Made by a program: the position numbers and the translations under genes. The notes beneath the pieces were generated by a model, which saw nothing but the letters and a program-made list of their open reading frames with translations, was not told the DNA's origin and made no database searches. A DNA stretch of 64,000 nt from IMG/VR virus record IMGVR_UViG_3300005527_003200. The stretch is one strand, 5' to 3'. This stretch comes from a virus (Duplodnaviria; Heunggongvirae; Uroviricota; Caudoviricetes). Below, piece after piece: positions 1-13,357 of the stretch (within the stretch, counting starts at the first letter, position 1; every line of letters begins with the position of its first letter).

Positions 1-152
1 TCCGCCGCCTTCCTGGAGTTTGGTGTAGCCTTATCCCTCACGCTCGATGGTGTCTCGCGCTACTCTTAGGCCCTCCTGCTTCATGGGTATCCGGCTCGAA
101 TCAGCCTTTGTTCACCCCTAACGGACTAGGTAACCCTAATGTGTTTACATAT

Positions 153-180
153 AGTGCCCAGAACTTAATCTGGGGCACTA
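153..180 (+). terminator. Imperfect 10-bp hairpin (TAGTGCCCAG-N8-CTGGGGCACTA) followed by an A/T-rich run; possible terminator or RNA structure
   Basis: Inverted repeat read directly in an ORF-free leader region. The downstream T-run is weak. Confidence 0.25.
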
Positions 181-250
181 TACAAAATTAAATTTTTAAC
201 GAACTTCAAAGTAGTTTCGATCAACTGCCTTTGTTTTCTAACTAGTCTCT

Positions 251-279
251 AGTATAGCATCTCCTGCTTTACTGGTCAA
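251..279 (-). promoter_or_regulatory. Sigma-70-like promoter: -35 TTGACC, 17-bp spacer, -10 TATACT. It fires leftward into the ORF-free region 1-245.
   Basis: The minus strand reads GTTGACC-agtaaagcaggagatgc-TATACT. It is copy 1 of a roughly 90-bp tandem repeat. Confidence 0.5.
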
Positions 280-348
280 CTTGTTTTGTAAATGCCCCGC
301 CTTGTTGCAGGGTCTTTACAAACTTCGCTGTTTTTCTAACTTGTGTCT

Positions 349-377
349 AGTATAGCACCAATCCAATTATTGGTCTA
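349..377 (-). promoter_or_regulatory. Sigma-70-like promoter: -35 TAGACC, 17-bp spacer, -10 TATACT. It is tandem with the promoter at 251-279.
   Basis: This is the second copy of the repeat tgtttt(t)ctaact.gt.tctagtatagca on the plus strand. Spacer length is conserved. Confidence 0.45.
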
Positions 378-384
378 CTGCCAT

Positions 385-415
385 AAAAAAACCCGCCTAC
401 TTGGCGGGTTTTTTG
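385..415. terminator. Bidirectional rho-independent terminator (AAAAAAACCCGCC-tactt-GGCGGGTTTTTTGG)
   Basis: A perfect 7-bp GC stem with a 5-nt loop is flanked by an A7 run and a T6 run. It lies 20 nt downstream of the porin stop. Confidence 0.85.
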
Positions 416-433
416 GTTTGTACTACTTCTGTT

Positions 434-1324
434 TTAGAACTGTACGACCAACCCGCCTGCTACTTGTTTGACATCAGTGGCTGCTGAGGTTCCCTCAACT
501 GTACGATACAAAACTTGTGCATAGGTCTTTTTGCTGAAAGCATACTCAGCACCTACGTTGTAACTCTTGATGCCATTTTCAATGCGACCATAGCTGGCCT
601 TCACTGTGACTGGTCCACCAAGTTTGTGTGCCACGCCGACCAACTGAGCACGGTTGGTGTTGGCAGCAACGCCTTTGTTGTCGCTTGCGCTGGCAAACAC
701 AGTGGTTGCACCAAATTTAGCACGAGCAGCCAACACGTCACTGGTTTCTGCGCCAGCTTCGTAACGAGCATAAGTCAACACAGCAGGTCCAACTGCGGCA
801 ATCACGGATGCGGCATAAGGATCAGCGGCAGTGCCAACAGCACCAGTGCTACGATCAAAGTTAGCAGAGACATTGCCAAAGTTCACAGAAGTGAAAGCGG
901 CATTGCTCAAACGCAAACCACGCAGGTTATGCACGTCGGCAGCTGAGCTACCAATCAATGTGCCAAATGGATCATTGTCGCTGATGGCCAAGAAGTGAGT
1001 GTGAACATTGCGACCAAGATCAACGCTACCCATTTTGTGAGCAATACCCACGGTGCTTTGGCGATCGCCAAGTCTAGTGTCAGTACCAGTGTCTGGGCTG
1101 TTGGCTTGGATGCCGGTCTCGTATGTGGCACGAGCTGTTAATCCGCCACCTAAGTTTTCAGTAGCACGAATGCCAAAGTGACTCAAGTCATTGGCCATGC
1201 CTTGCACGGTGGAAGCACCAGTTTTGGTGTTGTCAAGGTAAGTGCCAACACGACCATAGATACCAACTTGTGCGCTTGCAACACCAGCAACTGCCAGGGT
1301 CAACGCAATTAGAACTTTCTTCAT
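434..1324 (-). CDS. Outer-membrane porin, Gram-negative general porin family (betaproteobacterial OpcP/Omp32-like)
   Basis: There is a signal peptide ending in ASA-Q, a Gly/Ala/Thr-rich beta-barrel composition and a C-terminal ...VVQF with terminal Phe. The N-terminal VGIYGRV resembles the porin TLYGR motif. Confidence 0.75.
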   Translation of the reverse strand: MKKVLIALTLAVAGVASAQVGIYGRVGTYLDNTKTGASTVQGMANDLSHFGIRATENLGGGLTARATYETGIQANSPDTGTDTRLGDRQSTVGIAHKMGSVDLGRNVHTHFLAISDNDPFGTLIGSSAADVHNLRGLRLSNAAFTSVNFGNVSANFDRSTGAVGTAADPYAASVIAAVGPAVLTYARYEAGAETSDVLAARAKFGATTVFASASDNKGVAANTNRAQLVGVAHKLGGPVTVKASYGRIENGIKSYNVGAEYAFSKKTYAQVLYRTVEGTSAATDVKQVAGGLVVQF

Positions 1325-1372
1325 AAGTAATTTTTCCTTGTTAATGAAATGATCAAATGTCGATCATAGAGT

Positions 1373-1402
1373 ATTATATAGCACAAACACTGAGAATGTC
1401 AA
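1373..1402 (-). promoter_or_regulatory. Sigma-70 promoter for the porin gene: -35 TTGACA, -10 TATATAAT
   Basis: The minus strand reads cTTGACAttctcagtgtttgtgcTATATAAT. This gives a leader of about 45 nt with an AAGGAAAA RBS before the ATG. Confidence 0.65.
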
Positions 1403-1404
1403 AG

Positions 1405-1430
1405 AAAATGGCTACTTTCGCAGCCATTTT
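1405..1430 (-). terminator. Hairpin (AAAATGGCT-N8-AGCCATTTT) followed by TTTTCTTT on the minus strand; terminator insulating the porin promoter from upstream transcription
   Basis: A 9-bp stem and a T-rich tail on the minus strand sit immediately upstream of the -35 element. Confidence 0.5.
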
Positions 1431-1805
1431 GGTGGTTTCTGTTACGAGGTATTTCCTACCCTAGACGACCTTAAGCGGCCATCAAGAATTTTTCATCATT
1501 TGCAGATAAAAGTTTTGCTTGATTTACGGTCATCGCCTACCGTGCTGTCCACTCTGTTACTCTTTGCCCTGTCGAATCTAGGTCAGGCCCATCATAAAGA
1601 AACTTAATCTACGCTTAATGTTGTTAACAACAAGCATAATATTGGAAAAACAATTAATAAAAATTTTGCTAAATTTTCCATATTACCATAACTCACAGTT
1701 TTTTATTTTCTCTTCGTCCAATGTGGTATCACGTGTAAAATAAAATACACCAAACACTAACCAAAATAACAAAAATAAAACATAACCTATCATTAAACTT
1801 CCTTA

Positions 1806-1837
1806 TGGTGGACCTGGGGGGATTCGCACCCCCGTCC
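1806..1837 (-). other. tRNA-like 3' minihelix: T-arm (GGGGG-TGCGAAT-CCCCC) plus 7-nt acceptor 3' strand plus A plus encoded CCA. No matching 5' half was found.
   Basis: The minus strand reads GGACGGGGGTGCGAATCCCCCCAGGTCCACCA. No GGACCTG-type 5' acceptor (wobble allowed) occurs within 350 nt upstream. Confidence 0.3.
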
Positions 1838-2055
1838 AGAACACTTTTCTCTCGGCTTCATACAGCAATAACTCGCAGTATATATTTATTCTTTGGGCTT
1901 GTCAACTGCTTTGGAGATGATGTCATACACTTGTGCGTATGCATCAGTAATTTTGTCTAGTTGTTGTTCCGACACCAAGTCTGTGTCCTCCAGACTGACC
2001 AAGTCTCGGGCTAGATTTTCTTGTAGTTTTTTTATGGGATTGAGCACATACCTAT

Positions 2056-2589
2056 TTATTCATCCCCGCTATCTACTGGGATCCAGCCCAACTTAAAAAA
2101 GTCTTCCTGGATTTCTTCTGTGACATGTCCTTCGGGTACATATCTTTTAACACCGTCAGCATCACCATTGCCCAGTCCATCGCCTATGCCCGAACAGTAC
2201 CAATCAATATAGTCACCTTGTTCACGCATGTCGGCAACAATACCCCCGGCATAGCGCCACGAACAACTGTAGGTCTCTCCCTTTAGCAAAGGCCATACTT
2301 CGTTGCGTTGCCAGTCTTGATTGCACAAGGCTGCGTAGATGTTTTGAGCGTAGGTATCGCTGGCCTTGGCTTTGTCGCAAACCCACTTGGTGCTACGCAA
2401 ATCATATTCAAGATTGTTTTCTCGCCACCGTTCGTCGGCTTCGCGTTGAGCCTGATGTTCGTTGATCATGCGTTCAAGATCTAAAGCTCGTTGAACATCT
2501 TCGTCAGTGGCAGGATCTCCTCCTTCCGCAATGACATCTTCAATTCTGCATTGACTGTGAAAGGTTCCGCGAGTAGGACTTTTGTTCAT
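2056..2589 (-). CDS. Hypothetical protein (178 aa; acidic C-terminus)
   Basis: The track ORF was trimmed to an internal Met (MNKSPTRG...) because the listed start runs into tRNA-Leu. Confidence 0.55.
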   Translation of the reverse strand: MNKSPTRGTFHSQCRIEDVIAEGGDPATDEDVQRALDLERMINEHQAQREADERWRENNLEYDLRSTKWVCDKAKASDTYAQNIYAALCNQDWQRNEVWPLLKGETYSCSWRYAGGIVADMREQGDYIDWYCSGIGDGLGNGDADGVKRYVPEGHVTEEIQEDFFKLGWIPVDSGDE

Positions 2590-2595
2590 AATGTT

Positions 2596-2681
2596 TGGTA
2601 CCAGAGACGGGACTCGAACCCGTATGCCCTTGCAAGCGGCAGATTTTAAGTCTGCTGTGTATACCATTCCACCACTCTGGC
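2596..2681 (-). tRNA. tRNA-Leu (anticodon TAA), long variable arm
   Basis: A manual cloverleaf gives GCCAGAG acceptor, anticodon loop CTTAAAA, variable arm CGCTTGCAAGGGCATAC, T-arm GGGTTCGAGTCCC and an encoded CCA. Confidence 0.85.
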
Positions 2682-2699
2682 TTTGCGTTATTTAATACA

Positions 2700-2774
2700 T
2701 GGTCCGGCGTAGAGGAATCGAACCTCTATAATGACTTTAGAAGAATCATGTCCTATCCGTTGAACGAACGCCAG
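2700..2774 (-). tRNA. tRNA-Arg (anticodon TCT)
   Basis: Manual fold: the acceptor CTGGCGT pairs with ACGCCGG, the anticodon loop is CTTCTAA, the T-arm is AGAGGTTCGATTCCTCT, and CCA is encoded. Confidence 0.8.
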
Positions 2775-2779
2775 ATGTT

Positions 2780-2854
2780 TGGTGGGCCAACTTGGAATTG
2801 AACCAAGACTCGACCGATTATGAGTCGGTTGCTTTACCATTAAGCTATTGGCCC
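2780..2854 (-). tRNA. tRNA-Met (anticodon CAT; elongator Met, initiator, or lysidine-modified tRNA-Ile not resolved)
   Basis: Manual fold gives GGGCCAA acceptor, anticodon loop CTCATAA, T-arm CTTGGTTCAATTCCAAG, and an encoded CCA. Confidence 0.8.
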
Positions 2855-2877
2855 TGTGCTACATTGTAGCAGGAAAA

Positions 2878-3258
2878 CTATTTAGTGTCAACTGTTCCGT
2901 CGGCCAGGTGGTCATGTTTGATTTCTTTTACAGGATGCCCTAAAATGCTGGCAACAGAATTTTTGTAAGCAATACGTTTGTTGTTATGATCTCTAATGGC
3001 AATGGCTCGGCGACCAATCTCCTGAAGGCTCAACATTTGCTCCACGCCTGATTTGAGCTGCCATTCTAGATCCCAGATAGCATGATGGATGTCGGTCATT
3101 GCTTGAATGTCCTCATCTAGTTCTGCGCTTTGTGGTAGTTGTCGAAACTTGTCCTCGTACCAATCAAGTTCAACTTGGTTGGCGCCTTTGGTTCGTGCAT
3201 GTTTTACTCTGGCAATGCAGAGTCGATCAATTAGTTCTAATACTGGAAGAAATTCCAT
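2878..3258 (-). CDS. Hypothetical protein (126 aa)
   Basis: This ORF has its own consensus promoter and an AGGG RBS. No confident domain was seen. Confidence 0.6.
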   Translation of the reverse strand: MEFLPVLELIDRLCIARVKHARTKGANQVELDWYEDKFRQLPQSAELDEDIQAMTDIHHAIWDLEWQLKSGVEQMLSLQEIGRRAIAIRDHNNKRIAYKNSVASILGHPVKEIKHDHLADGTVDTK

Positions 3259-3287
3259 AGCATACCCTTTCTATTTTGTATAGAATT

Positions 3288-3316
3288 ATTATACAAAAAT
3301 GCTAAGTGTTTGTCAA
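3288..3316 (-). promoter_or_regulatory. Consensus sigma-70 promoter: TTGACA, 17-bp spacer, TATAAT
   Basis: The minus strand reads cgTTGACAaacacttagcatttttgTATAAT. The -10 element is 30 nt upstream of the ATG at 3258. Confidence 0.7.
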
Positions 3317-4077
3317 CGGTCTTTGTCAGTTCTTACCAATTGAATTAAGCGGTATCCAGGATCAAATTCCCACCATTTTTTGCCAAACTGTGGATCTGCG
3401 GCAGCGGCGTGATGATTGTTGTGCCAGCCCTCTCCACCAGTCAAATATCCTACCAGCAGGTTATTTGAACTTTGATCACGTGTGTCAAAATTTCTATATC
3501 CTGATGGACTGTGAGTGAGAGAGTTGGTCAGTGAACTGGCATGTTGCAACAATAGTGACGGAACCAAATAAGCATACACTACTGCATAAGGATCTATCAT
3601 GTAAACTGCCACCCCGACCAAGATAGTGTACAACCAATGATTGTAGTACATGTGCATGTGAAATTTGGATTTCACAATCTCTGGAGCATAACTTAATTTT
3701 GGAGTAGCAGGTGTGAGTCTAAATTGCACGGCTAGATAACCGTATACCGCAGGTGAGTGCGGATCATCTTTTGTGTCAGAGTGTCTATGATGCGCTCGAT
3801 GTATTGCTACCCAATACAACATTGGTAAAGTTGTGCCAGGAATAGCAATCAATGTTCCTAGATATTCAAACCATTTTGGTGCTTGAAAAGAACGATGGGT
3901 GATCAGCCGATGAACTGTTACAGTTCCGACTACCATCTTGATATAGTAGACCAACAGACATATTGCCCACTGCCATGCTTCACTGTTGAAGATAAAGTAG
4001 ACCAGGATCACATGTAGACAGGCACTGTATGCAATCATTTCGTTGTGCGAAGGCACAAACCAGTTTTTCTTTTTCAT
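3313..4077 (-). CDS. Membrane fatty-acid/lipid desaturase (histidine-box di-iron family)
   Basis: Three His boxes are present (HRLITH, HRAHHRH, HNNHH) together with multiple TM segments. Confidence 0.8.
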   Translation of the reverse strand: MKKKNWFVPSHNEMIAYSACLHVILVYFIFNSEAWQWAICLLVYYIKMVVGTVTVHRLITHRSFQAPKWFEYLGTLIAIPGTTLPMLYWVAIHRAHHRHSDTKDDPHSPAVYGYLAVQFRLTPATPKLSYAPEIVKSKFHMHMYYNHWLYTILVGVAVYMIDPYAVVYAYLVPSLLLQHASSLTNSLTHSPSGYRNFDTRDQSSNNLLVGYLTGGEGWHNNHHAAAADPQFGKKWWEFDPGYRLIQLVRTDKDR

Positions 4078-4085
4078 GCAGATAC

Positions 4086-4244
4086 TTATGCATCTACTTG
4101 CAGTAGGTCAGCCTCTTGATCCATTTCCATTTCGGTAATCAGCAGGTCAGCAAATTGCTGACAGAAGATAGCAAACCAAAGTTGGTCCATCGCTTCTTCG
4201 GGTGCGCCAGCGGCCCGCACCAGGCGTTCAAGTTCAGTATTCAT
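4086..4244 (-). CDS. Small hypothetical protein (about 52 aa), paralogue of the genes at 5968..6195 and 6562..6855
   Basis: The unlisted ORF starts MNTELERLV...FADLLITE. It shares the MNE.I..LA..AG...FAELIV pattern with the two listed paralogues. Confidence 0.45.
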   Translation of the reverse strand: MNTELERLVRAAGAPEEAMDQLWFAIFCQQFADLLITEMEMDQEADLLQVDA

Positions 4245-4537
4245 AGCCTGGAATCATAAGTGAAGGCAGCAAGATATCGCATGCTGGCACGGCTGGGAAT
4301 GTGCTGATTACAGAACCGTTGGTATGCCGCACGCCAACGCTTTTGGACAGGTGCTGGCGCATGGCAAGCAAGATAATGCAAGTGGCCAAATCTGCGCCCA
4401 ATGCTGATGTGATTGGGCTTCCAGCCTGCAGGATACCATTTGTCGCGAGTTTGCCAATTGTAGTTTACCCAGACACCCATTCGGCGTTCTTGCATGATAT
4501 ACTTTTTAGATATATCTTGTGGTCTAAATCGGTTCAT
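4241..4537 (-). CDS. Hypothetical protein (98 aa)
   Basis: It shares an ATGA overlap with the upstream SPFH gene. Orientation is consistent with the operon. Confidence 0.45.
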   Translation of the reverse strand: MNRFRPQDISKKYIMQERRMGVWVNYNWQTRDKWYPAGWKPNHISIGRRFGHLHYLACHAPAPVQKRWRAAYQRFCNQHIPSRASMRYLAAFTYDSRL

Positions 4538-5328
4538 TTTTGCATCATCAGCGCATTGAAGTTTGCAGGAACAACAATTGTTTGCACACGACCGTTCTTG
4601 ATACCTTCTGAGATATTCATCATAGCCTGCGCTTGCATGTAAGCAATTGACTGAGCACCTTGATTACTCAATGCTTGCATACGTTCTGCTTCCATCTTAG
4701 CAGTCTTAACTTCAACTTCTTTTTGTTTCAATTCATTCTTGGCACGAACCAACTCATTTGCACTCGCAACCACAGAATCTGCAGGTACAATATTCCGAAT
4801 CAACACTTGACCAACAACCAAACTACCATCAAGTTTTTCATCAGCCAAACTCTTTTGAATTTGTTCTTTAATTGCTTGTTCCATCACTTGGCGATTATCA
4901 GCCATGTCTAGTGCCTCGTACTTTCGGGCTTCTTTGTAGATGGCATTACGAGTGGTTTGAACCATATAGTTGTACATCAAGTAGATGTCGCCGTTGTGCC
5001 GAGCATGGAATGCTTGACTCTTTTGGCTATACAACTCGGCTACCTGTGCTTGATTGATGTTATAGATAACCACTGCATCAAAGTCTTTCATTGTTGAGTT
5101 ATCTTTAGCAACAGGTGTCATGTCCTCCAGTTTGACATTAACGTCCTTGATTGGGAATGTAAGAACATCACCCCAAAAGGTTTGATTAAACGAGCCAGGC
5201 ATTAATTCACCTTGCTGGACTTGTTTATCAAAGCCAACACGTACACCAACTTCACCTGTTTCGATACGAGTACAACCTGTTGCCAGCACAGCCGCGGCAA
5301 GAACGGAGAGAGTCAAAATACGTTTCAT
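4534..5328 (-). CDS. SPFH/Band-7 (prohibitin/HflK-like) lipoprotein
   Basis: A lipobox (LATGC) is followed by the SPFH-domain pattern and a coiled-coil C-terminus. Confidence 0.7.
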   Translation of the reverse strand: MKRILTLSVLAAAVLATGCTRIETGEVGVRVGFDKQVQQGELMPGSFNQTFWGDVLTFPIKDVNVKLEDMTPVAKDNSTMKDFDAVVIYNINQAQVAELYSQKSQAFHARHNGDIYLMYNYMVQTTRNAIYKEARKYEALDMADNRQVMEQAIKEQIQKSLADEKLDGSLVVGQVLIRNIVPADSVVASANELVRAKNELKQKEVEVKTAKMEAERMQALSNQGAQSIAYMQAQAMMNISEGIKNGRVQTIVVPANFNALMMQK

Positions 5329-5337
5329 TTTATTTCC

Positions 5338-5526
5338 TTAAAAAAGTACCACAAGGGCAAGTAGACTACCAAAAGTAAGTATAGCACAAAATGCACTGTA
5401 AGTCAAGAGTTTTACCAAACTCCACGATTCTTTTCCGGACATGTTCCGTAGGTACTGAATGCCGAAAAAGAACATGCCAAACACAACAACAAAAGCCAAT
5501 AGGATTCTAATCATCACACTCTCCAA
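5338..5526 (-). CDS. Small two-TM membrane protein, possible NfeD-like partner of the SPFH protein
   Basis: The 62-aa product has two hydrophobic helices and lies directly downstream of the SPFH gene. Confidence 0.45.
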   Translation of the reverse strand: MESVMIRILLAFVVVFGMFFFGIQYLRNMSGKESWSLVKLLTYSAFCAILTFGSLLALVVLF

Positions 5527-5987
5527 ATTTCTTCAAAACCTTCCGACAAGTCTGGCTCTTCCCAGTCCCGAATCATGCGAGCAATCACCTCAGATGGGAT
5601 TGTTTTGCCCGGACGGCCGGCCAATCGTCTAGCCAATTCTTCAGGCTCGGGCGTTCGAAATACCACAGCAATGGCCGAGTATTCCGGCAACATGCGAAAC
5701 TTTTTGGCCCGGCTTGCCCGTGTGGTGCTGGTCTGATCCCAGATGATGTCGTTGTTGTTAGCCTGTGCAGTCAACGCATGGTTGGTCATCAGGCGAACAG
5801 CAATAGGCATGTATTCTTCAAACACTTCTGAATAGGTCTTGCCTTGGCTCCGGGCATAATCTTCCACCCAGGGGTCTGTGCTGACCACACTCAAGCCCAA
5901 GGCCCAGACCTGGTCTTTGATCCAGGTGCTTTTGCCTGATCCTGGCACTCCTACCAACATGTACAATTTAGGCACTTTCAACTCCAA
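5514..5987 (-). CDS. P-loop kinase (AAA_33 / polynucleotide-kinase- or zeta-toxin-like NTPase)
   Basis: A Walker A motif (VGVPGSGKST) lies near the N-terminus of a protein of about 155 aa. Confidence 0.65.
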   Translation of the reverse strand: MELKVPKLYMLVGVPGSGKSTWIKDQVWALGLSVVSTDPWVEDYARSQGKTYSEVFEEYMPIAVRLMTNHALTAQANNNDIIWDQTSTTRASRAKKFRMLPEYSAIAVVFRTPEPEELARRLAGRPGKTIPSEVIARMIRDWEEPDLSEGFEEIWRV

Positions 5988-6195
5988 AATGTTCTTTGAT
6001 ATTCTTTGCAGAAAAGGTCAACGCTCTATCCCATTGATTATTACCGTGCCCGTTACCAATGCTTGCTTGTTCAATACATTCTCTCACAATCAACTCGGCG
6101 AATTTTTTACACTCTGGCATATCCCAGTGTCCAATGCCAAACATATCTTTTTCGTAGCCAGCCTGTTCAGCAAGTTGTCGAATTCGTTCGTTCAT
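5968..6195 (-). CDS. Small hypothetical protein (75 aa), KFAELIVREC paralogue family
   Basis: It shares MNE.I..LAE.AG and KFAELIVREC with the gene at 6562..6855. Confidence 0.55.
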   Translation of the reverse strand: MNERIRQLAEQAGYEKDMFGIGHWDMPECKKFAELIVRECIEQASIGNGHGNNQWDRALTFSAKNIKEHFGVESA

Positions 6196-6401
6196 ATCAT
6201 ACCCTCAAACAATTTTTTAACCGATATCGCCTGACCTGTAGTATAAACAATATCAAAACTATCATTCTCAATGTGATACCGATTGCGGTTGCAATTTACA
6301 TACTCACCCTTGTCATCAGTATACACTTGTCGCATCTGTGTATAGGTTTTATCCACAGCACCATCAAAGATAACCCGTGTAGTGATTTTACGCTTGTTCA
6401 T
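6192..6401 (-). CDS. Hypothetical protein (69 aa)
   Basis: It shares an ATGA overlap with the upstream gene. Confidence 0.45.
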   Translation of the reverse strand: MNKRKITTRVIFDGAVDKTYTQMRQVYTDDKGEYVNCNRNRYHIENDSFDIVYTTGQAISVKKLFEGMI

Positions 6402-6403
6402 TC

Positions 6404-6564
6404 TTCAACCTCTGTTTCAAAAGTAGAAATTTCTTGATCTTCTGTCAGATCCAGACTTTCTAGTGCGTATTCTAAATTGTTCCTGGATGCAAACACACGG
6501 ACACTCACATCGGGCACTTCACTGTCTTTGTCAAATGTTTGAACAGCATAGCCGTAGACTTTCA
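6404..6564 (-). CDS. Small hypothetical acidic protein (about 54 aa; MKVYGYAVQTFDKD...)
   Basis: This ORF is unlisted because it is under 60 aa. Its start overlaps the stop of the upstream paralogue. Confidence 0.35.
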
Positions 6565-6855
6565 TTCTTCAACTCCAAATTTCTTTTTCGCTAATTCTTG
6601 TTCGCATTGAGCAATGGAGGCGTCAAGCATAGCAGTTGTGATTTCTTTGGGATTCATTCCAAAATGCAATTTAATCAAATCTACTCCCTGACCGCGACTG
6701 ATCATGTCACGCAACATGGGATTCAATGCTATGCAACATTCCCGCACAATCAACTCGGCGAACTTTTCAATTTCGTCATCTAACAATGAAACAGCATGGT
6801 CATTGCTGTATACTGCGCCAGCCTCAACCGCAAGTAGTTTAATTTGTTCGTTCAT
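6562..6855 (-). CDS. Small hypothetical protein (97 aa), KFAELIVREC paralogue family
   Basis: It shares its N-terminal half with the gene at 5968..6195. Confidence 0.55.
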   Translation of the reverse strand: MNEQIKLLAVEAGAVYSNDHAVSLLDDEIEKFAELIVRECCIALNPMLRDMISRGQGVDLIKLHFGMNPKEITTAMLDASIAQCEQELAKKKFGVEE

Positions 6856-6856
6856 T

Positions 6857-6960
6857 TTACATCCTTATATAACCATCGGCGGAATCTTGTTGATACTGTT
6901 GTTAGCACATTTATGCCAATAATAACAACGACTGCAATAACAATAACAATTTCAATCATT
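6857..6960 (-). CDS. Micro-ORF encoding a single-TM peptide (about 35 aa; MIEIVIVIAVVVIIG...)
   Basis: A GGAG RBS lies 7 nt upstream. Its start overlaps the upstream stop and its stop overlaps the downstream start (ATGA-type coupling). Confidence 0.35.
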
Positions 6961-7066
6961 CTTTAACTCCAAAATGTTTTTTACATTTGTGAAATGGCAT
7001 AATACGACCAAGCCATCCAATCAGTTCACCGCAATTTTGGCAACAGTATGATGGGTATTTCTTCAT
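6956..7066 (-). CDS. Micro-ORF encoding a zinc-ribbon-like peptide (about 36 aa; CCQNCG...HKC)
   Basis: This is the internal Met of track ORF 6956..7144. Its start overlaps the stop of the gene at 7063..7341. Confidence 0.35.
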   Translation of the reverse strand: MKKYPSYCCQNCGELIGWLGRIMPFHKCKKHFGVKE

Positions 7067-7341
7067 TTCAAATCGCCACGCAGGGTGTGCCACATTTTGG
7101 GATCGGTGCCCAAGTAGATGCGATACTTTTGATAATTGCGCCACTGGCTCAGTCGGTTCACACCACGCTCGACCCAGTCAAACATGGCACTGCGGAACCA
7201 CAAGGGATTCACAATGGCCACAATCAGTGCTGCCGCCACAGGCACAATCAGCACAGCCACAACCACCCAATGAAATGTCATGGCACGGTAGTAACGGCCA
7301 CCACCAGGCACCAGTTCAATTTCTTTACTCATATTTGCCAT
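7063..7341 (-). CDS. Small membrane protein (92 aa, one long TM segment)
   Basis: It contains the hydrophobic stretch WVVVAVLIVPVAAALIVAIV. Confidence 0.5.
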   Translation of the reverse strand: MANMSKEIELVPGGGRYYRAMTFHWVVVAVLIVPVAAALIVAIVNPLWFRSAMFDWVERGVNRLSQWRNYQKYRIYLGTDPKMWHTLRGDLK

Positions 7342-7742
7342 TCCTTTTTTGTTTTGCGTTTGAAAGTTGTTGGGTCAATCACTGCCGACAGGGCTTGCGT
7401 GACATCTTCCGCAGTGTCTGGGTCAGTGCTCTTTTTGAGTCCTAGTGCAACCTTTTCTTCTGCTGTGAGTTTACGCAGGGCCGCACGCCGCAGGCGCAGA
7501 CGCTCTTGTTTGCGTTCTTCCTTTTCGCGGGCCTTGCGGTCTGCTTCTTTGTGTTTAGCCCACCATTCACGCACCTCGTCATCACGGAGCAACAACAGAT
7601 CTTCAATCTTGTTGTTTTCCAGTTCAGTCATGGCCTTGCAGGCAATGCGAGCCAGCATGTCAGCACGGTCTTTGAGATCGCGATACTGCCAACTGTCAGT
7701 GGGGCTGGAATAACTGTCTGATGCATAATCTCTACAGGGCAT
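7329..7742 (-). CDS. Hypothetical basic coiled-coil protein (137 aa)
   Basis: The product is K/R/E-rich. It is operon-consistent. Confidence 0.5.
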   Translation of the reverse strand: MPCRDYASDSYSSPTDSWQYRDLKDRADMLARIACKAMTELENNKIEDLLLLRDDEVREWWAKHKEADRKAREKEERKQERLRLRRAALRKLTAEEKVALGLKKSTDPDTAEDVTQALSAVIDPTTFKRKTKKEWQI

Positions 7743-7743
7743 G

Positions 7744-8136
7744 TTACTCTCCTTGTGTCTGCAGGGCTTTCAAAAACTCCACACATGCGGCCTCGGTGCG
7801 CTTGGTCACTACCACCCGGCCACCCCAGAAGCCCACATACAGACTGCGGTGCTCCACAAACTTCACTTCACCGTCAGCACCAGTATGCTTTTGACGAGCC
7901 GCTGGCTTTGCAGGCACTGCCTTTTTTGCAGGTGCTTTAGGCACTGCGGCCACCACAGGCTTTGCTGTCACTGCCTTTGCAGGTGCAGGCACTGCAAGCG
8001 GACGATGCTCAAAGCCATGTTTCTTATCATACTTGGCAATGGCTTTTTCATCCATGCCCCATGTGGCCAGTAGTCGGCGAACTTCAGTGCCGGGCAGTTG
8101 ATTCCAGTGTATGATAGGGTCAGTCCAGTTGGTCAT
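7744..8136 (-). CDS. Hypothetical protein with an Ala/Pro/Lys-rich linker (130 aa)
   Basis: It contains AKP repeats of the form PAPAKAVTAKPVVAAVPKAPAKK. Confidence 0.5.
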   Translation of the reverse strand: MTNWTDPIIHWNQLPGTEVRRLLATWGMDEKAIAKYDKKHGFEHRPLAVPAPAKAVTAKPVVAAVPKAPAKKAVPAKPAARQKHTGADGEVKFVEHRSLYVGFWGGRVVVTKRTEAACVEFLKALQTQGE

Positions 8137-8146
8137 GTTGGGCTCC

Positions 8147-8347
8147 TTAATAAGATTGATGTGAATGTCCGATACGATACACGGGTGCGCCTGGCGTCAA
8201 ATCATTTTCCGGAGTATACACTTCCGGCAACATGATATCCGCAAACTCACCGTAGGAGTAATAACCAGACTCGGTCACTACCAAGCGAGCATCAGCGGGC
8301 AGGGCACGGAGTGCCTCAATCATTTGTGCTACAGTTATAGTGGTCAT
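8147..8347 (-). CDS. Small hypothetical protein (66 aa)
   Basis: The listed ORF was trimmed to a Met that has an AAGGAG RBS and lies directly behind a consensus promoter. Confidence 0.55.
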   Translation of the reverse strand: MTTITVAQMIEALRALPADARLVVTESGYYSYGEFADIMLPEVYTPENDLTPGAPVYRIGHSHQSY

Positions 8348-8374
8348 CTCAAGCTCCTTAGTGTCTATGTGTGT

Positions 8375-8403
8375 ATTATAGCAAATTGGGAATTTTTGGT
8401 CAA
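8375..8403 (-). promoter_or_regulatory. Sigma-70 promoter: TTGACC, 17-bp spacer, TATAAT, with a conserved ACACACATAGACA leader
   Basis: The minus strand reads gGTTGACCaaaaattcccaatttgcTATAATacacacatagacactAAGGAGcttgagATG. Confidence 0.75.
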
Positions 8404-8600
8404 CCGTGCAGAGCAGTCCAGGTTTCCCAGGGCTGATCGCGAATGTATTGTATTGCCTTAACACCACCTTTAACCCTGCAGGCATACTGCATGGCTGTGG
8501 CAAATTTGCCACGCTGACGATGTGTTTTGCGAGCTAATCCTACCGGATTGAGCTTCCATTTCCACAGCGAGTCATATTTGCCGCGAATCATCTTGTGCAT
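8400..8600 (-). CDS. Small basic hypothetical protein (66 aa)
   Basis: It has its own promoter and a GAGGAG RBS. Confidence 0.55.
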   Translation of the reverse strand: MHKMIRGKYDSLWKWKLNPVGLARKTHRQRGKFATAMQYACRVKGGVKAIQYIRDQPWETWTALHG

Positions 8601-8628
8601 GGTGGCTCCTCTGTTGTCTATGTGTGTA

Positions 8629-8657
8629 TTATAGCAAAACGGTGATTTGGTGTCAAC
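8629..8657 (-). promoter_or_regulatory. Consensus sigma-70 promoter: TTGACA, 17-bp spacer, TATAAT, with the same conserved leader
   Basis: The minus strand reads gGTTGACAccaaatcaccgttttgcTATAATacacacatagaca. The -35 element overlaps the stop codon of the upstream gene. Confidence 0.75.
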
Positions 8658-8982
8658 CGTTTTGCTTCACGCGAACGTCCGTGTTCAGCGCAGGTGCATA
8701 CTTTTGTATTAACTCGCGCTCCAACTTATGTGCGGCATCTTTGCCACGCACAATGTCCACGATAGCCACGTTCATTGCTTCAGTACCGTTTGCGCGAATT
8801 GCTTCGTACAAGTTCCAGCCTTTGTCTTCTGTGCGGCTACGGTAGATGTGCTTGTTCACACGGCTACGGAGCGACATGTTGATTGTGCGCTGGGTTTTTG
8901 CGGTAATACCAATGTAGTACTCAAATCCAATTTGGATCATGTACACTATGTGGCTGCGATCAGTACGTTTCTTTCTCATCAT
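8653..8982 (-). CDS. GIY-YIG domain protein (small, YhbQ-like, no obvious DNA-binding extension)
   Basis: It carries a VYMIQ...YYIGIT (GIY-YIG) motif plus conserved R and E residues. Its ATG lies only 6 nt downstream of the -10 hexamer. Confidence 0.65.
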
Positions 8983-8988
8983 GTGTGT

Positions 8989-9017
8989 ATTATAGCATTT
9001 TGGGCATTTTTGGTCAA
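8989..9017 (-). promoter_or_regulatory. Sigma-70 promoter: TTGACC, 17-bp spacer, TATAAT. It predicts a leaderless or near-leaderless mRNA for the GIY-YIG gene.
   Basis: The minus strand reads gGTTGACCaaaaatgcccaaaatgcTATAATacacacATGATG. Confidence 0.65.
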
Positions 9018-9045
9018 CCGAAATGCCTGTTGCAAAAATACAACA

Positions 9046-9085
9046 AAAGTACTACTTTTTTTAGCCCTAAAAGTAGTACTTTTTT
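9046..9085. promoter_or_regulatory. Perfect 15-17-bp palindrome (AAAAGTACTACTTTT / AAAAGTAGTACTTTT) between divergent transcription units; bidirectional terminator or operator
   Basis: An inverted repeat with an 8-nt loop is flanked by A/T runs on both strands. Confidence 0.5.
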
Positions 9086-9110
9086 CAGCAAAAATTGAAT
9101 ATTTGGTCAA
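9082..9110 (-). promoter_or_regulatory. Degenerate fourth copy of the promoter repeat: TTGACC -35 with a poor -10 (TGAAAA)
   Basis: It shares GGTTGACCAAA...TTTTGC with the copies at 8375, 8629 and 8989. Confidence 0.25.
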
Positions 9111-9136
9111 CCAAAGTGTGGGCTATAAGTAACAGC

Positions 9137-10210
9137 ATGGACACTGATCTTTACCACGACATTTACACTAGCGAAATTTTTGACACCAGCCAATGCATAT
9201 GGCACGAAAATAATACCATGAATTTCTTTCACAGTTTGTTGATCAAACTGGGATATGAGCCTGTGCAAGATGGACACAAAACATGGCGCCGTGGAGACCG
9301 TACTGTGGTGCTGTGTCTGGTAGACGACTACATCTCTACCACATACGACTATGACACACCAGTGGCATATCGATTTGATCGCAATACCACAGTGATCACA
9401 GACAACTATGTTACCAGTCCAACCTTGTACAAGGTGTTTCAACTGCCATCCAGTTTCTTTGGCATCTATCATTATGAACCCAAGCTGACCAATTTCAATC
9501 CCACACGCAGATTTAATTTTTCAGTCAATCGCATTGATTCCAAACGCATGTTGACCATGCTGGAAATTGCGTTGCGTTGTGAAAAGTATCCAGATGCTGA
9601 AACGTTGGACTTTATCAATTTCAACTGCTGGAGTTGGGAAGGTGACAATTCCACAGCTGAAGGATGCAATCAAAATTTCAGAGATGCCTACGAAAAACTA
9701 GAGCCACAATACAAAGCAGTGTATGGTGACACTTTTGAACGCATTGCTCAAACCATGCCATTTAAAAATCATGACATGTCAGTTGAGCAGGCACACCTCA
9801 GTGCTTATGTGAACATGGTAATTGAAACCTACTCCAGTGACAGTTCAATTGCTCTCAGCGAGAAGATATTCCGTGCATTGGTCACTCCGGCACCCTGGCA
9901 AGTGTATGCTGGCCGCCATGCAGTGGCCTATCTGGAAAGTCTAGGATTTGACACACTCAAAGACATTGTCAATCACAGTTACGATGTCATGATGGAAAAC
10001 AAAACTGCTGCCTATGGTGACAAACTGGTTGAATACATCTTTGCTGGCGCAGATACATTTACCAAACTCAGTGCTATGGATCGCACAGAACTGCGACATC
10101 GTTGCCTTACTGCCAGCAGACAAAATCAAAAGGTGCTCAAAGACATGAGTGCTCGTTGGCCTGCAGAGTTTGCCGCTTGGTTGCCGGCTGTTATAGACCA
10201 TATCAAATAA
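9137..10210 (+). CDS. Putative glycosyltransferase, GT10-like (alpha-1,3-fucosyltransferase-type C-terminal motif), paralogue A
   Basis: Its C-terminus (ETYSSD...SEKIFRAL...PWQVYAG...LGFDTLKDIVNHSYD) resembles the GT10 FEN...TEK...PVV motif. It is shared with the genes at 12398, 28080 and 49134. The listed ORF was trimmed to its first ATG. Confidence 0.5.
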   Translation: MDTDLYHDIYTSEIFDTSQCIWHENNTMNFFHSLLIKLGYEPVQDGHKTWRRGDRTVVLCLVDDYISTTYDYDTPVAYRFDRNTTVITDNYVTSPTLYKVFQLPSSFFGIYHYEPKLTNFNPTRRFNFSVNRIDSKRMLTMLEIALRCEKYPDAETLDFINFNCWSWEGDNSTAEGCNQNFRDAYEKLEPQYKAVYGDTFERIAQTMPFKNHDMSVEQAHLSAYVNMVIETYSSDSSIALSEKIFRALVTPAPWQVYAGRHAVAYLESLGFDTLKDIVNHSYDVMMENKTAAYGDKLVEYIFAGADTFTKLSAMDRTELRHRCLTASRQNQKVLKDMSARWPAEFAAWLPAVIDHIK

Positions 10211-10211
10211 C

Positions 10212-11753
10212 ATGTGTGGTGTTCTATACGTAAAAAGCACCACTGATATACCGCTAGAAAAGCACAACCAAGCTCTAGAAATTTTAAAAGATCGCGGTCC
10301 AGATTTTACCTGTTACCAACATCATGGTCGTGTGTTCTGTGCGCAAACAGTTCTGCACATCACTGGCAACACACAATTTTACAATCGACAGTCAGATGAT
10401 TTTTTTGCATTCAATGGCGAAATCTACAACTATCGCTGGTTTGGTTCCTACAGCAACGACACTGAGCTGATGTATCGTGCTGTAAAAGACGCACCAGTAA
10501 AAAAACTCAAATACTTTGAAGGACCGTGGGCGTGGGTGTATGCTCAAGGCGACCAAGTGATATATGCCACTGATCCACAAGGCGAAAGATGCCTGTACAG
10601 ATATCAAGACAACAACATACTGATTGTGAGTTCTGAGGTGGCAGCTATTTTGGTATACATCCGACCAAAATTACAAGACATTGATTACACAACCAAACAC
10701 TATCCAATTTGGCAAAACACGCCTTGGCAAGGAATTGAACGATGTGTGCCAGGTGTGATGTATGATCAGTCGGGCAACACCACAGTGATTGACAGTATCT
10801 TTTCATGGGCCAAACCCAGTAGTATTCAAACATTGGACCAGGCCTGGGAAGAATATCAACCCTTGTGGGAACGGGTAATCACTGACATGCGGCCAGAAAC
10901 ATCTTATGCCTGCACATTCAGTGGTGGGCTTGATTCTGGCGTGGTTGCAAAAAGTCTTCCACAAAGTCAGCACTATTATACCACCAACATGCTGGGCAAA
11001 GACCCAGTGAGTGAACAATCTCAACGTATGTTGGAAGGCAGTCAACGAGACAAAATCATCAACATTGGTGTTACAGAACAGCAATGGGCCGATGCATTTG
11101 AGCAAGTGTGTCGTCGCACACTGATGCCAGTTCAAAGCTACAGTTTTGTTGGCCAGTGGATAATTGCTCAACACTGCAAAGAACGTGTGTTGTTTACTGG
11201 TGTAGGCGCTGATGAACTGTTTGGTGGCTATGGCGTTTACTCACAGCTTGAATACACCACACAAACAAGTGCAAGTCCTTACAGTTCATTTGGCAATGAC
11301 ACTCACGCTCAACAACTGTGGCAACAATGTTTGCATGCACATCAAGGTCAAGCAGAGCCAGCCACTCTGTTGATGGATTATATCACTCAAATTTGTGCAA
11401 TAGACATGCGTGGCATTGACGTTTGTACCATGGCACATGGCATTGAACCACGCTCGCCATTTGTGCATCCTAAGATCATTCGGTTTGCACTTGGCCTTCC
11501 CATGCACCTGAGGCGCGGCAAACCTTTGATTCGTCGACAGTTTTTGGCCTCCTGGCCTGAAGAAATGATACTTCCCAAAAAAGGATTCACTGGACATTGC
11601 AATGATTCATTGCCTTGGATGAAATTCACTGTGCCAGATCAGGCTCGGGCACCACAGTGGAAGCAAATTGTCAAAACTGGATTTAGATATTATGCCAATC
11701 AATATCTTGATCAAACCACTCAGGACTTATCCGCACATGCGGATGTTGCTTGA
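10212..11753 (+). CDS. Asparagine-synthetase-B-like glutamine amidotransferase (class-II GATase plus PP-loop ATP pyrophosphatase)
   Basis: Cys is the first residue after the initiator Met. A PP-loop SGGLDS is present, and the C-terminal MAHGIEPRSPF matches the AsnB E.R.PFLD motif. Confidence 0.75.
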   Translation: MCGVLYVKSTTDIPLEKHNQALEILKDRGPDFTCYQHHGRVFCAQTVLHITGNTQFYNRQSDDFFAFNGEIYNYRWFGSYSNDTELMYRAVKDAPVKKLKYFEGPWAWVYAQGDQVIYATDPQGERCLYRYQDNNILIVSSEVAAILVYIRPKLQDIDYTTKHYPIWQNTPWQGIERCVPGVMYDQSGNTTVIDSIFSWAKPSSIQTLDQAWEEYQPLWERVITDMRPETSYACTFSGGLDSGVVAKSLPQSQHYYTTNMLGKDPVSEQSQRMLEGSQRDKIINIGVTEQQWADAFEQVCRRTLMPVQSYSFVGQWIIAQHCKERVLFTGVGADELFGGYGVYSQLEYTTQTSASPYSSFGNDTHAQQLWQQCLHAHQGQAEPATLLMDYITQICAIDMRGIDVCTMAHGIEPRSPFVHPKIIRFALGLPMHLRRGKPLIRRQFLASWPEEMILPKKGFTGHCNDSLPWMKFTVPDQARAPQWKQIVKTGFRYYANQYLDQTTQDLSAHADVA

Positions 11754-12399
11754 AATATTTTTCAACCCAATCCAAGCATTGTGATTCGCTAGGAGTCACT
11801 GACCTAGTGCGAGAACTGTTGAATTCATACCAGTACAACCCGTATGGTGCCTGAGAATCTGTAAATCTAAAAGTAAACAACTGTCCGGGATCTGCTCCGC
11901 ACAGTTTGGCAAATCTATCAAAAGTTGTGATTGGTTCAAAGTCTGAATACAAGTGTGCTCGACTGTGATGTGTGGTAATAAATCCTGGCACAGTTTGTAT
12001 TTCGGGCAATCGTTCTAGACATCGCAATCGTGAATCTCCATTGCCAGCAAGATATGTGCCATCACCCTGATCTAACACCAAAAATGGTTTTATAATGCCC
12101 TGTGCTCGTATGTCTCGTATCCACATGTTGAGCTTGACAAGATTGGCAATGTCATAGTGATTGCGCGGCTCAGCTAGAAACCCTGCTGGCCCATCATGAT
12201 CTAGCCACTGATTGGCCCATTCGCAAAGATCATTCAGTCGTTGGTTGGTTGAAAAGTGTCGAAATTCGCAACTGGGATTCCAGAACAAGCAATGCATGCC
12301 TTGATTTGAACTGATCTGAATGGGATCTTGTTTGCTGGGCCAGTGAAATTCCACAAGAGGATTATTCCAATACATAGATCTACTTAGTAAATAGGTCAT
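11683..12399 (-). CDS. Hypothetical protein on the opposite strand, possibly ParB/sulfiredoxin-like (GNGDSRL)
   Basis: It is a 238-codon ORF in an otherwise unassigned 640-nt gap. Its start codon overlaps the divergent start of the gene at 12398. Confidence 0.4.
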   Translation of the reverse strand: MTYLLSRSMYWNNPLVEFHWPSKQDPIQISSNQGMHCLFWNPSCEFRHFSTNQRLNDLCEWANQWLDHDGPAGFLAEPRNHYDIANLVKLNMWIRDIRAQGIIKPFLVLDQGDGTYLAGNGDSRLRCLERLPEIQTVPGFITTHHSRAHLYSDFEPITTFDRFAKLCGADPGQLFTFRFTDSQAPYGLYWYEFNSSRTRSVTPSESQCLDWVEKYFKQHPHVRISPEWFDQDIDWHNI

Positions 12400-13357
12400 G
12401 GACTATACATCTTTGTTTGCCAACACACTCTCTGGCTTGGGGTTTGATCTGCATGCAGTTTACAACTGCTTTGATCCGCCATATCGTCCAGAAACTGGTT
12501 GGCCGTTAAAGTTGCCCAACATTGAATTCAAACACAACACACTGCTGTTGTTGCATTTTCAAGATTTCATAACACCATGTCAGGGTCGCATACTTGAACT
12601 GGAACAAGTAGAACGCCACTATGGCGCCAATGCACATCGTGTGCTGGTAACTTATTGGAGTCATAATTTACAAAAATACTATCAAGGACCAGTGAACCTT
12701 ATCGAATTCAGCAATCACAACATGGCCACTGTGACTGCTATCCAAGCTCGTGAGTCACAATGGACCAATTCAATAAATGCAAAAACTTCAGCATGGCAAT
12801 GCCTCAATGGTCGCATGTGCTTGCATCGTCGACGTGCTGTGGACATCTTGCAACATTGGCCTAATGGTGTGTTAAGTTACGGCAACGACATTCCACTTGA
12901 TGCTTGGGCTTATGACACCTATCGCGGCACAGAAAACGAAGATAACTTCATGCGACTGTTGCCGGTATATGCAAAATGTCAAGTGAACATTGTGACTGAA
13001 ACACAGTATGATGAGCCGCCAGGCATTGTGAGCGAAAAAACATTGATGGCGATGATTGCACAGCAGGTACCCATTGTGATTGGTCACCAAGGTATTGTGC
13101 AAGACTGTAGAGAGCTTGGGTTTGACATGTTTGACGACCTGGTGGACACCAGCTATGATAGCATGTCCAATGACGTTCGAGTCGAACAAGCCATAATGAA
13201 AAATCAAGATCTCATACTGGGAAAAATTAACCTTGCGCCATACCAAGAGCGACTGCAAAAACAAAGAAGTTTTTTGCTTGATGAATTTATAACTGGCACA
13301 CAACAACGGTACATTCAAGACGTTGAACAGTTGGCTAAAAAACTAAGTGCGATTTAA
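12398..13357 (+). CDS. Putative glycosyltransferase, GT10-like, paralogue B
   Basis: It has the C-terminal motif NIVTETQYDE...SEKTLMAM...PIVIGHQG...LGFDMFDDLVDTSYD. Confidence 0.5.
   Translation: MDYTSLFANTLSGLGFDLHAVYNCFDPPYRPETGWPLKLPNIEFKHNTLLLLHFQDFITPCQGRILELEQVERHYGANAHRVLVTYWSHNLQKYYQGPVNLIEFSNHNMATVTAIQARESQWTNSINAKTSAWQCLNGRMCLHRRRAVDILQHWPNGVLSYGNDIPLDAWAYDTYRGTENEDNFMRLLPVYAKCQVNIVTETQYDEPPGIVSEKTLMAMIAQQVPIVIGHQGIVQDCRELGFDMFDDLVDTSYDSMSNDVRVEQAIMKNQDLILGKINLAPYQERLQKQRSFLLDEFITGTQQRYIQDVEQLAKKLSAI

Follow-up and report, generated by a model that had tools for sequence, protein, structure and literature searches.

Why should the genome of a large phage contain a gene for a general outer-membrane porin, and where does this porin come from? 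The question is raised by the virus record IMGVR_UViG_3300005527_003200 (Caudoviricetes) of IMG/VR, of which a stretch of 64,000 nucleotides, referred to as the window, was analysed. Its minus strand contains a porin gene that had been annotated initially as a host-type betaproteobacterial porin carried as a self-contained moron. The results suggest that the protein belongs to a previously undescribed porin family, which appears to be restricted to viruses. It is highly probable that the gene encodes a functional porin that is expressed. The complete explanation, according to which the phages maintain a general-diffusion porin of the PorB/Omp32 class in an autonomous cassette and thereby sustain the influx of nutrients, was judged to be evenly balanced between right and wrong. 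Nutrient influx as the selected function of the phage porin, considered by itself, falls a little short of that balance.

The porin gene and its protein

The gene and its expression signals in the window are as follows.

434..1324, minus strand: porin coding sequence of 296 amino acids from the list of open reading frames (ORFs), start codon ATG at 1324..1322 and stop codon TAA at 436..434
1271..1324, minus strand: Sec signal peptide, amino acids 1-18, MKKVLIALTLAVAGVASA followed by QV, with the cleavage motif A-S-A (A-x-A), read directly from the sequence
1335..1339, minus strand: Shine-Dalgarno sequence AAGGA, 10 nucleotides (nt) 5' of the ATG, read directly from the sequence
1349..1367, minus strand: leader hairpin, a palindrome ATGATCGA-cat-TTGATCAT folded with RNAfold, beginning 6 nt past the -10 box
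1373..1402, minus strand: sigma70-type promoter, TTGACA at 1402..1397, a spacer of 18 nt and TATAAT at 1378..1373, a match in 12 of 12 positions
414..386, both strands: bidirectional intrinsic terminator AAAAAACCCGCC-aagta-GGCGGGTTTTTT, a stem of 12 base pairs (bp), 6 of them G-C, flanked by A/T runs on either side

The presence of a complete general-porin gene, as initially annotated, was borne out by a match to the Pfam family Porin_4 (PF13609), by the signal peptide and by the C-terminal phenylalanine, all read on the minus strand. The Porin_4 match covered residues 7-278 (E 2.8e-25; 90.2 bits at a cut-off of 27), and the match to Porin_1 was limited to residues 38-108. No PHROGs family was matched in a search with the porin. 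The predicted mature protein has about 278 amino acids. The pattern MKK...A-x-A-Q of the signal peptide was kept in all of the 80 or more relatives, and the sequence AAAGGAAA was nearly invariant in their leaders. The window porin ends in GLVVQF, and all full-length relatives end in H-x-F or VQF.

Predicted structure of the porin

A model calculated with AlphaFold2 from a family alignment of 57 sequences reached a predicted local distance difference test score of 92.5 and a predicted template modelling (TM) score of 0.86. The protein was predicted to form an antiparallel beta-barrel of 16 strands; the model contains 17 strand segments, which were read as 16 strands with strand 2 bulged. The nearest solved folds found with Foldseek were Omp32 (TM 0.82), BpsOmp38 and PorB (TM 0.75-0.82 and about 20% identity for this group), and OmpF-type porins came next. 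Comparison of the family profile with the PDB gave the same ranking, with PorB (9e-28) and Omp32 (6e-22) as the top matches.

Most loops of the model are very short. Loops L1 and L5 consist of 2 residues each, L7 of 4, L6 of 5 and L8 of 7 residues, and all extracellular loops except L2 and L3 span 2-10 residues. The "latching" loop L2 is retained with 17 residues, which would be consistent with a trimer. Loop L3 comprises 30 residues (108-137) with two short helices and is among the most conserved regions of the cluster of close relatives. Down to 43% identity, the residues R88, R105, R135 and R138 on the barrel side and D118 and D130 in L3 are invariant or nearly so; by alignment, this set probably corresponds to the arginine ladder and the acidic L3 motif of OmpF-type porins. 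Hypervariable surface loops were sought as the signature of an arms race among 120 close relatives, and none were found.

Relatives of the porin and their genomic context

A word-indexed search yielded 820 relatives of the porin, the best 120 clusters of which were 85-96% identical and all of metagenomic origin. An exhaustive search of 1.84 billion cluster representatives gave 38 relatives at E<1e-30, nearly all of them 285-312 amino acids long besides a few fragments, and ordinary cellular porins of 330-380 amino acids first appeared at E ~1e-10. All cluster members that were looked up came from metagenome assemblies with contigs of at most 216 kb. In IMG/VR, relatives with 29-88% identity were present on 73 contigs of up to 525 kb, including four of 349-525 kb. 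Related loci are designated L001 and so on in the following.

Every sampled context of relatives with 29-96% identity was phage-like. The neighbouring genes encoded ribonucleotide reductase, glutaredoxin, DNA ligase, homing endonucleases, ClpX-like ATPases, ThyX, ribosomal protein S21 and heme oxygenase, and runs of tiny ORFs and tRNA arrays were also present. The members of the family, 289-312 amino acids long and represented in hundreds of metagenome clusters besides the IMG/VR contigs, have diversified to less than 40% identity wholly within such phage-like contigs. Two motif scans of 185,579 species-representative GTDB genomes, one of which used an alignment of 11 sequences, revealed no relative, although exact-peptide motifs could miss homologues of 40-60% identity. 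A tblastn search of 50,697 deposited phage genomes with the window porin and two divergent members gave no real match; the single match obtained (58 residues, E 2e-3, on a human-gut contig) was regarded as noise. The nearest demonstrably cellular porin (P0204, on a contig of 2.25 Mb) was 26% identical with 15% gaps, which were located mostly in loops. Its named relatives belong to Oxalobacter, Hydrogenophilales, Rhodocyclaceae and Caldimonas, all of them Betaproteobacteria.

The GC content of the porin gene was 50.6% (z +2.0), the second highest of 54 ORFs. The GC content at third codon positions (GC3) was 44.1% (z +0.46), and the log-likelihood of codon usage had a z score of -0.93 (rank 6 of 54). 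As GC3 is ordinary, the excess in GC was ascribed to the amino acid composition. The porin is compositionally at home in the phage and lacks the deviating composition by which a moron is recognised. The term "host-type", if it is to mean a recent capture from the host, does not agree with these values, with the 26% identity to the nearest cellular porin, with the genome scans or with the phage-like contexts.

The transcription unit and the adjacent tmRNA gene

Perfect promoters (12/12) number only three in the 64 kb, that of the porin included and both strands counted; by our own estimate about 0.02 would be expected by chance. Eight promoters, again including that of the porin, matched in at least 11 of 12 positions. 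None of the eight is on the plus strand, and seven are located inside 1..9017. Because seven of these near-consensus promoters are crowded in the first 9 kb, the porin unit looks like part of a block that would be transcribed by the host polymerase, presumably early, rather than like an isolated insertion. The bidirectional terminator begins 19 nt past the porin stop codon. In the whole window seven strict minus-strand terminators were found, and two of them flank the porin.

The same signals were counted at non-redundant related loci, with the other ORFs of these loci as controls. A terminator within 60 nt of the stop codon was present for 55 of 62 porin genes (89%) versus 23 of 386 other ORFs (6%; Fisher p 7e-44). 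For promoters (at least 10/12) within 100 nt upstream, the numbers were 33 of 62 and 93 of 386, respectively (Fisher p 7e-6). The self-contained unit with its own promoter and with terminators on either side was therefore confirmed, in the window as well as by the enrichment throughout the family.

Upstream of the porin promoter the following features were located.

1405..1430, minus strand: terminal stem-loop and terminator of the transfer-messenger RNA (tmRNA) gene, a stem of 11 bp followed by TTTTCTTT, from a terminator scan and folding
1428..1909, minus strand: permuted two-piece tmRNA gene with the tag ANDEKFLMAA, directly upstream of the porin, from ARAGORN and Rfam

The Rfam models RF04321 and RF01849 scored 115 bits over 1867..1471 and 57 bits over 1909..1428, and the ORF of the tag is located at 1503..1471. 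The tmRNA gene has its own promoter (11/12) at 1905..1877, and because of this position the RNA probably starts near 1867-1870. The model of the betaproteobacterial two-piece tmRNA, RF01850, matched the same-lineage loci L004 (111 bits) and L085 (122 bits; cut-off 84) over model positions 1-331. In the window, a longer spacer lowers the clade-specific Rfam scores. A spacer of about 190 nt (1592..1778) is not conserved in relatives. The two tmRNA pieces showed 87-97% nucleotide identity between the window and these two loci.

In L004 the RF01850 match stops 2 nt beyond the hairpin that is homologous to 1430..1405 of the window; the latter hairpin thus constitutes the 3'-terminal stem-loop of the tmRNA and its terminator. 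The T-tract of this hairpin overlaps the -35 box of the porin promoter. The initial annotation had described the hairpin as protective; as it is situated upstream of the -35 box and outside the porin transcript, it cannot protect that transcript. The order of the elements at the junction (tmRNA end, hairpin, T-tract over the -35 box, -10 box) is fixed and was conserved in L003, L004, L018, L038, L039 and L063, and the junction recurred where the porins were only 42-51% identical to that of the window. A permuted tmRNA gene on the same strand, not more than 3 kb upstream of the porin, was found at 15 of 73 IMG/VR loci and in addition at L003-L006. The tags among the relatives include ANDEQFALAA, ANDSQFALAA and ANDERFALAA.

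A betaproteobacterial host is suggested by the class of the porin, by its nearest cellular taxa and by the tmRNA of the RF01850 type in the lineage. The epithet "betaproteobacterial" was retained in this sense of class affinity, which includes the folds of PorB, Omp32 and BpsOmp38, but it does not extend to close sequence similarity, with the nearest cellular sequence at only 26% identity.

The leader hairpin

The predicted porin mRNA would begin with the leader hairpin or close to it. Most relatives have a leader hairpin of 5-10 bp, which follows a -10-like element at a distance of about 6 nt and has its end some 22 nt 5' of the ATG; relative to the ATG, the median positions were -41 for the 5' start and -22 for the 3' end. 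At this conserved position 27 distinct arm sequences occurred. Folding of 47 non-redundant leaders gave a mean z score of -1.88 relative to dinucleotide shuffles (t-test p 5e-11), while control leaders of neighbouring genes had a z score of -0.71 (Mann-Whitney p 2e-5 versus the porin leaders). These statistics were obtained free of alignment, as MAFFT did not bring the two stem classes into register for a covariation count. The mRNA of ompA is known to possess a stabilising stem-loop at its 5' terminus, and the leader hairpin is probably a 5'-terminal, mRNA-stabilising stem-loop as well.

In many relatives TATAAATA-like motifs of the T4 late-promoter type were found just upstream of the leader hairpin, about 45-60 nt 5' of the porin ATG (L020-L035, L046, L049, L052, L056, L073 and L081). 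The window has the -35 and -10 boxes there. Two copies of TATAAATA were found in the window versus 1.3 expected, so that there was no enrichment, and late expression of the porin in the window phage was no longer considered. The timing of porin expression may differ among the phage lineages.

Selection and mobility of the cassette

In 13 comparisons between porins of different phages, the ratio of nonsynonymous to synonymous substitution rates (dN/dS) was 0.11-0.25, and the family is judged to be under purifying selection. The flanks were analysed for each family separately and by a direct comparison of L001 and L010; single-linkage clustering, which put 80 of 83 loci together, gave no information. 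Only the segment 404..1273 of the window was common to the 64 kb and the L001-type phages, with 87-90% nucleotide identity. This block corresponds to the coding region of the mature porin plus the terminator, with a breakpoint just past the signal peptide. The neighbourhood in L001-type phages is a different one, with genes for ribonucleotide reductase, a PAAR-motif protein and a ligase.

In L001 and L010 four core proteins were 85-89% identical, while the porins were only 50% identical, which shows allele replacement at a fixed site. An ORFan of about 670 amino acids adjoining the porin was only 32-34% identical. This hypervariable protein, which had no Pfam or PHROGs match, may be a host-recognition protein. 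The porin gene directly follows the genes of the PAAR-motif protein and the ORFan in L010 (5563-7883), L001 (5647-7922) and L089 (5702-8004); in L001 the ORFan is split into two proteins of 347 and 312 amino acids.

In the lineage of the window (L003-L006 and L085), the core of tmRNA and porin was constant and blocks of 3-6 kb on either side came and went. The porin gene was present in all same-lineage loci retrieved, which had been selected for carrying it. The comparisons indicate that the porin cassette has moved between phage backgrounds.

Possible function of the porin

For the timing of expression, insertion into the membrane, trimer formation, channel activity and a benefit in nutrients we infer the following course of events. 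Early in infection, host RNA polymerase with sigma70 would start at the consensus promoter. The terminator of the tmRNA gene would insulate the porin unit, making initiation independent of the gene upstream. The transcript would carry the short, probably stabilising 5' hairpin and the strong Shine-Dalgarno sequence and would end at the bidirectional terminator. The pre-protein would be exported by Sec and cleaved after A-S-A, and the beta-barrel assembly machinery (BAM) of the host would recognise the C-terminal aromatic signal and insert the porin into the outer membrane. The product would be a channel of 16 strands, probably a trimer, which would keep L2 for latching and L3 for constriction and would have nearly no surface loops. 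The permeability of the outer membrane would be raised or maintained in this way, and small nutrients could keep entering the host, an oligotrophic freshwater bacterium, while the large phage completes its long replication.

Nutrient influx is the favoured benefit, and periplasmic solute-binding proteins of the TctC or DctP type, which recur near the porin in relatives, would fit it. In at least 13 related loci, genes for these proteins were separated from the porin gene by no more than a few kb, and L007 has ABC transporter parts. The benefit of the porin would resemble that of phage-encoded uptake genes.

Several points weigh against this explanation. It is conjectural that an additional porin would raise nutrient flux in the host. 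No TctC or DctP homologue was found in the 64-kb window, and the uptake context is drawn from relatives only. The replacement of alleles at a fixed locus in L001 and L010 would also fit a function in an arms race. The advantage of the sense over the antisense strand in the folding of the leader hairpin was small (p 0.09), and because of this weak bias the hairpin could instead be a palindrome acting in the DNA, such as an operator, rather than a stabiliser of the RNA. With regard to restriction to viruses, the scans for cellular relatives were based on motifs and could pass over bacterial homologues at 40-60% identity, and many members of the family are on contigs of 1-5 kb, the origin of which cannot be judged.

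Remodelling of receptors or superinfection exclusion is the main alternative to nutrient influx, although an unlikely one. The porin lacking loops would offer fewer or different handles to phages, or it would displace or mask the host porin that serves as receptor for rival phages or for the phage's own progeny. The extremely short extracellular loops and the exchange of the cassette among phage lineages would suit such a role, as would the comparison of L001 and L010, in which divergent porins and a still more divergent ORFan after the PAAR-motif protein contrast with a conserved core in a pattern typical of host interaction. However, no surface loop was hypervariable in the 120 close relatives and dN/dS was low throughout, the hypervariable neighbour contains no recognisable receptor-binding domain, and, as a matter of general knowledge, a new porin would not remove stable receptors already present within one lytic cycle. 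Exclusion had been suggested in the initial annotation; it is possible, yet nothing specific was found in its support.

It is quite improbable that the mini-porin is a weapon of phages against other phages instead of a nutrient channel. It would then be a surface-smooth replacement, evolved by viruses, that is swapped as a cassette together with or beside hypervariable recognition genes, and neither competing phages nor the progeny of the phage itself would recognise infected cells and their debris any longer. The recurrent linkage of the porin to a phage tmRNA gene might further reflect a joint programme, in which envelope proteins of the host would be tagged and degraded and the version of the phage put in their place. 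If this applied, a widespread viral system would rewrite the bacterial outer membrane during lytic infection.

A function as a pore in egress or in the timing of lysis, where an outer-membrane channel would condition the envelope before lysis as was proposed for CsgGF, is very improbable. Phages of the Melnitz type likewise pair a two-piece tmRNA gene with a gene for an outer-membrane pore (PMC9004378), and many related loci have the late-promoter motifs upstream of the leader hairpin. Against this, the protein has the hallmarks of a diffusion porin for small solutes and no feature of secretins or spanins, the promoter in the window is of the host sigma70 type, TATAAATA is not enriched in the window, and no lysis genes were identified nearby. 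That the porin was captured recently from a host, a classical moron or passenger with little adaptation to the phage that mainly reports the identity of the host, has a minimal probability: the arrangement of promoter, gene and terminator, the high GC content and the class affinity to betaproteobacterial porins agree with it, but the distance to cellular porins, the diversification within phage-like contigs, the ordinary GC3 and the purifying selection between phage copies do not.

The phage and the surroundings of the cassette

The window covers part of the genome of a large phage. It encodes a T4-type DNA polymerase of family B (phrog_262, E 4e-193), for which the best matches among isolates were the jumbo phages Sinorhizobium phage Phosso (51%) and Agrobacterium phage Atu_ph07 (47%), and in addition a ClpB-like ATPase, asparagine synthase and radical-SAM enzymes. 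Most ORFs are ORFans without a family and are packed on one strand. The RNA genes comprise three tRNAs and one tmRNA. In an ORF of 1389 amino acids at 54983-59152 (minus strand), residues 691-885 correspond to an Amidoligase_2 domain and the N-terminal part matches phrog_36119.

The block with near-consensus promoters (1-9017, minus strand) holds the tRNAs, the tmRNA and envelope genes. A cluster of tRNA-Met, tRNA-Arg and tRNA-Leu is located at 2596-2854 (minus strand) and has its own near-consensus promoter at 2891..2863; an array of over 25 tRNA genes (4985-12854) surrounds the porin in L085. An ORF of 203 amino acids at 2056-2667 (minus strand) overlaps tRNA-Leu (2596..2681). Because its homologue in L085 has only 177 amino acids, the true start is probably downstream, near 2589. 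Directly downstream of the porin terminator there are two direct repeats of 37 nt with 81% identity (223-259 and 321-357), each bearing a promoter-like site on the minus strand (279..251 and 377..349). The repeat block is kept in L003-L006, and in L004 it is followed by a tRNA array.

Near the island of RNA genes and porin, the window encodes a membrane fatty-acid desaturase (3313-4077, minus strand) and an SPFH/Band-7 lipoprotein (4534-5328, minus strand). L085 additionally has genes for ketoacyl synthase, TerC and rubrerythrin, and all these genes look like cargo that modifies the envelope or its lipids. The loci with TctC or DctP include L003 (1383-5741), L088 (1-2864), L036-L040, L047 and L052; in L003 and L005 these genes are located beside genes for TauD and a 2OG-Fe(II) oxygenase. 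ARAGORN reported tRNAs with the anticodon CTA, labelled Pyl, in L007 (7014-7088) and L046 (464-538). These are candidate amber suppressors, and the porin-carrying phages concerned may recode the stop codon TAG.

Comparison with known porins and pore genes

The phage porin shares its predicted fold and the Pfam family Porin_4 with Omp32 of Delftia acidovorans, PorB of Neisseria and BpsOmp38 of Burkholderia pseudomallei. A Sec signal peptide, an internal helical L3, conserved arginine and aspartate residues and a C-terminal aromatic residue are likewise common to all of them. However, the phage protein is 30-60 residues shorter because nearly all its predicted extracellular loops besides L2 and L3 are cut to 2-10 residues, and it is encoded by phages, whereas the other three are encoded by cells.

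Porins of phages are known from lysogenic conversion. Lc of phage PA-2 and NmpC of prophage DLP12 are OmpC/OmpF-like proteins of temperate lambdoid phages and are close to host porins. As in these cases, the genome of the window phage carries the gene of a general porin for the outer membrane of the host. In contrast to Lc and NmpC, this porin belongs to Porin_4, it occurs in a large phage with a T4-type polymerase, and it bears no sign of recent origin from a host.

Freshwater amoC-phages carry oprP, the gene of a phosphate-selective porin, which was interpreted as a host-like auxiliary gene (bioRxiv 10.64898/2026.06.18.733297). Like the phages described here, whose host is probably betaproteobacterial, they are large freshwater phages of betaproteobacterial hosts with a gene for an outer-membrane channel. 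OprP, however, belongs to another porin family and is reported to be highly similar to its host homologues, whereas the family found in the window has no close counterpart in hosts. The amoC-phages have 36-39% GC and 1-6 tRNAs, in contrast to about 44% GC in the window and the large tRNA array in the same-lineage locus L085. That the window might represent one of the published amoC-phages was ruled out by GC content and tRNA number.

In the Methylophilales phage Melnitz and in pelagimyophages, genes for a CsgGF pore are located just downstream of a two-piece ssrA, and a function in the timing of lysis or in secretion was proposed for the pore (PMC9004378). The resemblance consists in a T4-like aquatic phage with a permuted tmRNA next to a pore gene that is unlike any host gene. 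The two pores are unrelated, that of Melnitz being a curli secretion channel and that of the window a general porin.

Phage-borne porins have already been catalogued, since BFVD contains two proteins of uncultured freshwater Caudovirales that were automatically annotated as "OmpC porin" (A0A6J5L4P1 and A0A6J5LP82; Foldseek E 1e-17 and 1e-10). They are 420 and 285 amino acids long and have 17-20% identity to the window porin. The literature search revealed no description of this Porin_4 family or of these two BFVD entries. The porin would act like an auxiliary metabolic gene derived from a host, yet the motif-based scans of species-representative genomes gave no relative and the nearest cellular porin was 26% identical, so that it is not regarded as a recent copy of a host gene.

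Should the protein be active, the permeability of the outer membrane would be re-engineered in many lytic infections of freshwater Betaproteobacteria, and nutrient flux as well as sensitivity to other phages and to antibiotics would be affected. Reads annotated as "porin" in lake metagenomes would then have to be read anew, as many of them may be viral. A porin of 278 residues that has been minimised naturally would also be an attractive scaffold for structural studies and nanopores, and the combination of the porin with a two-piece tmRNA of the beta type could be used as a signal of host class in an uncultured phage group. In comparison, the phage porins described earlier (Lc, NmpC and the host-like oprP) were isolated curiosities. 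The porins described here form a diversified and apparently virus-restricted family that is reduced to little more than the predicted barrel with a putative trimer latch and a putative constriction loop, has conserved expression signals of its own, and is spread over, and exchanged among, many large freshwater phages, including contigs of more than 300 kb.

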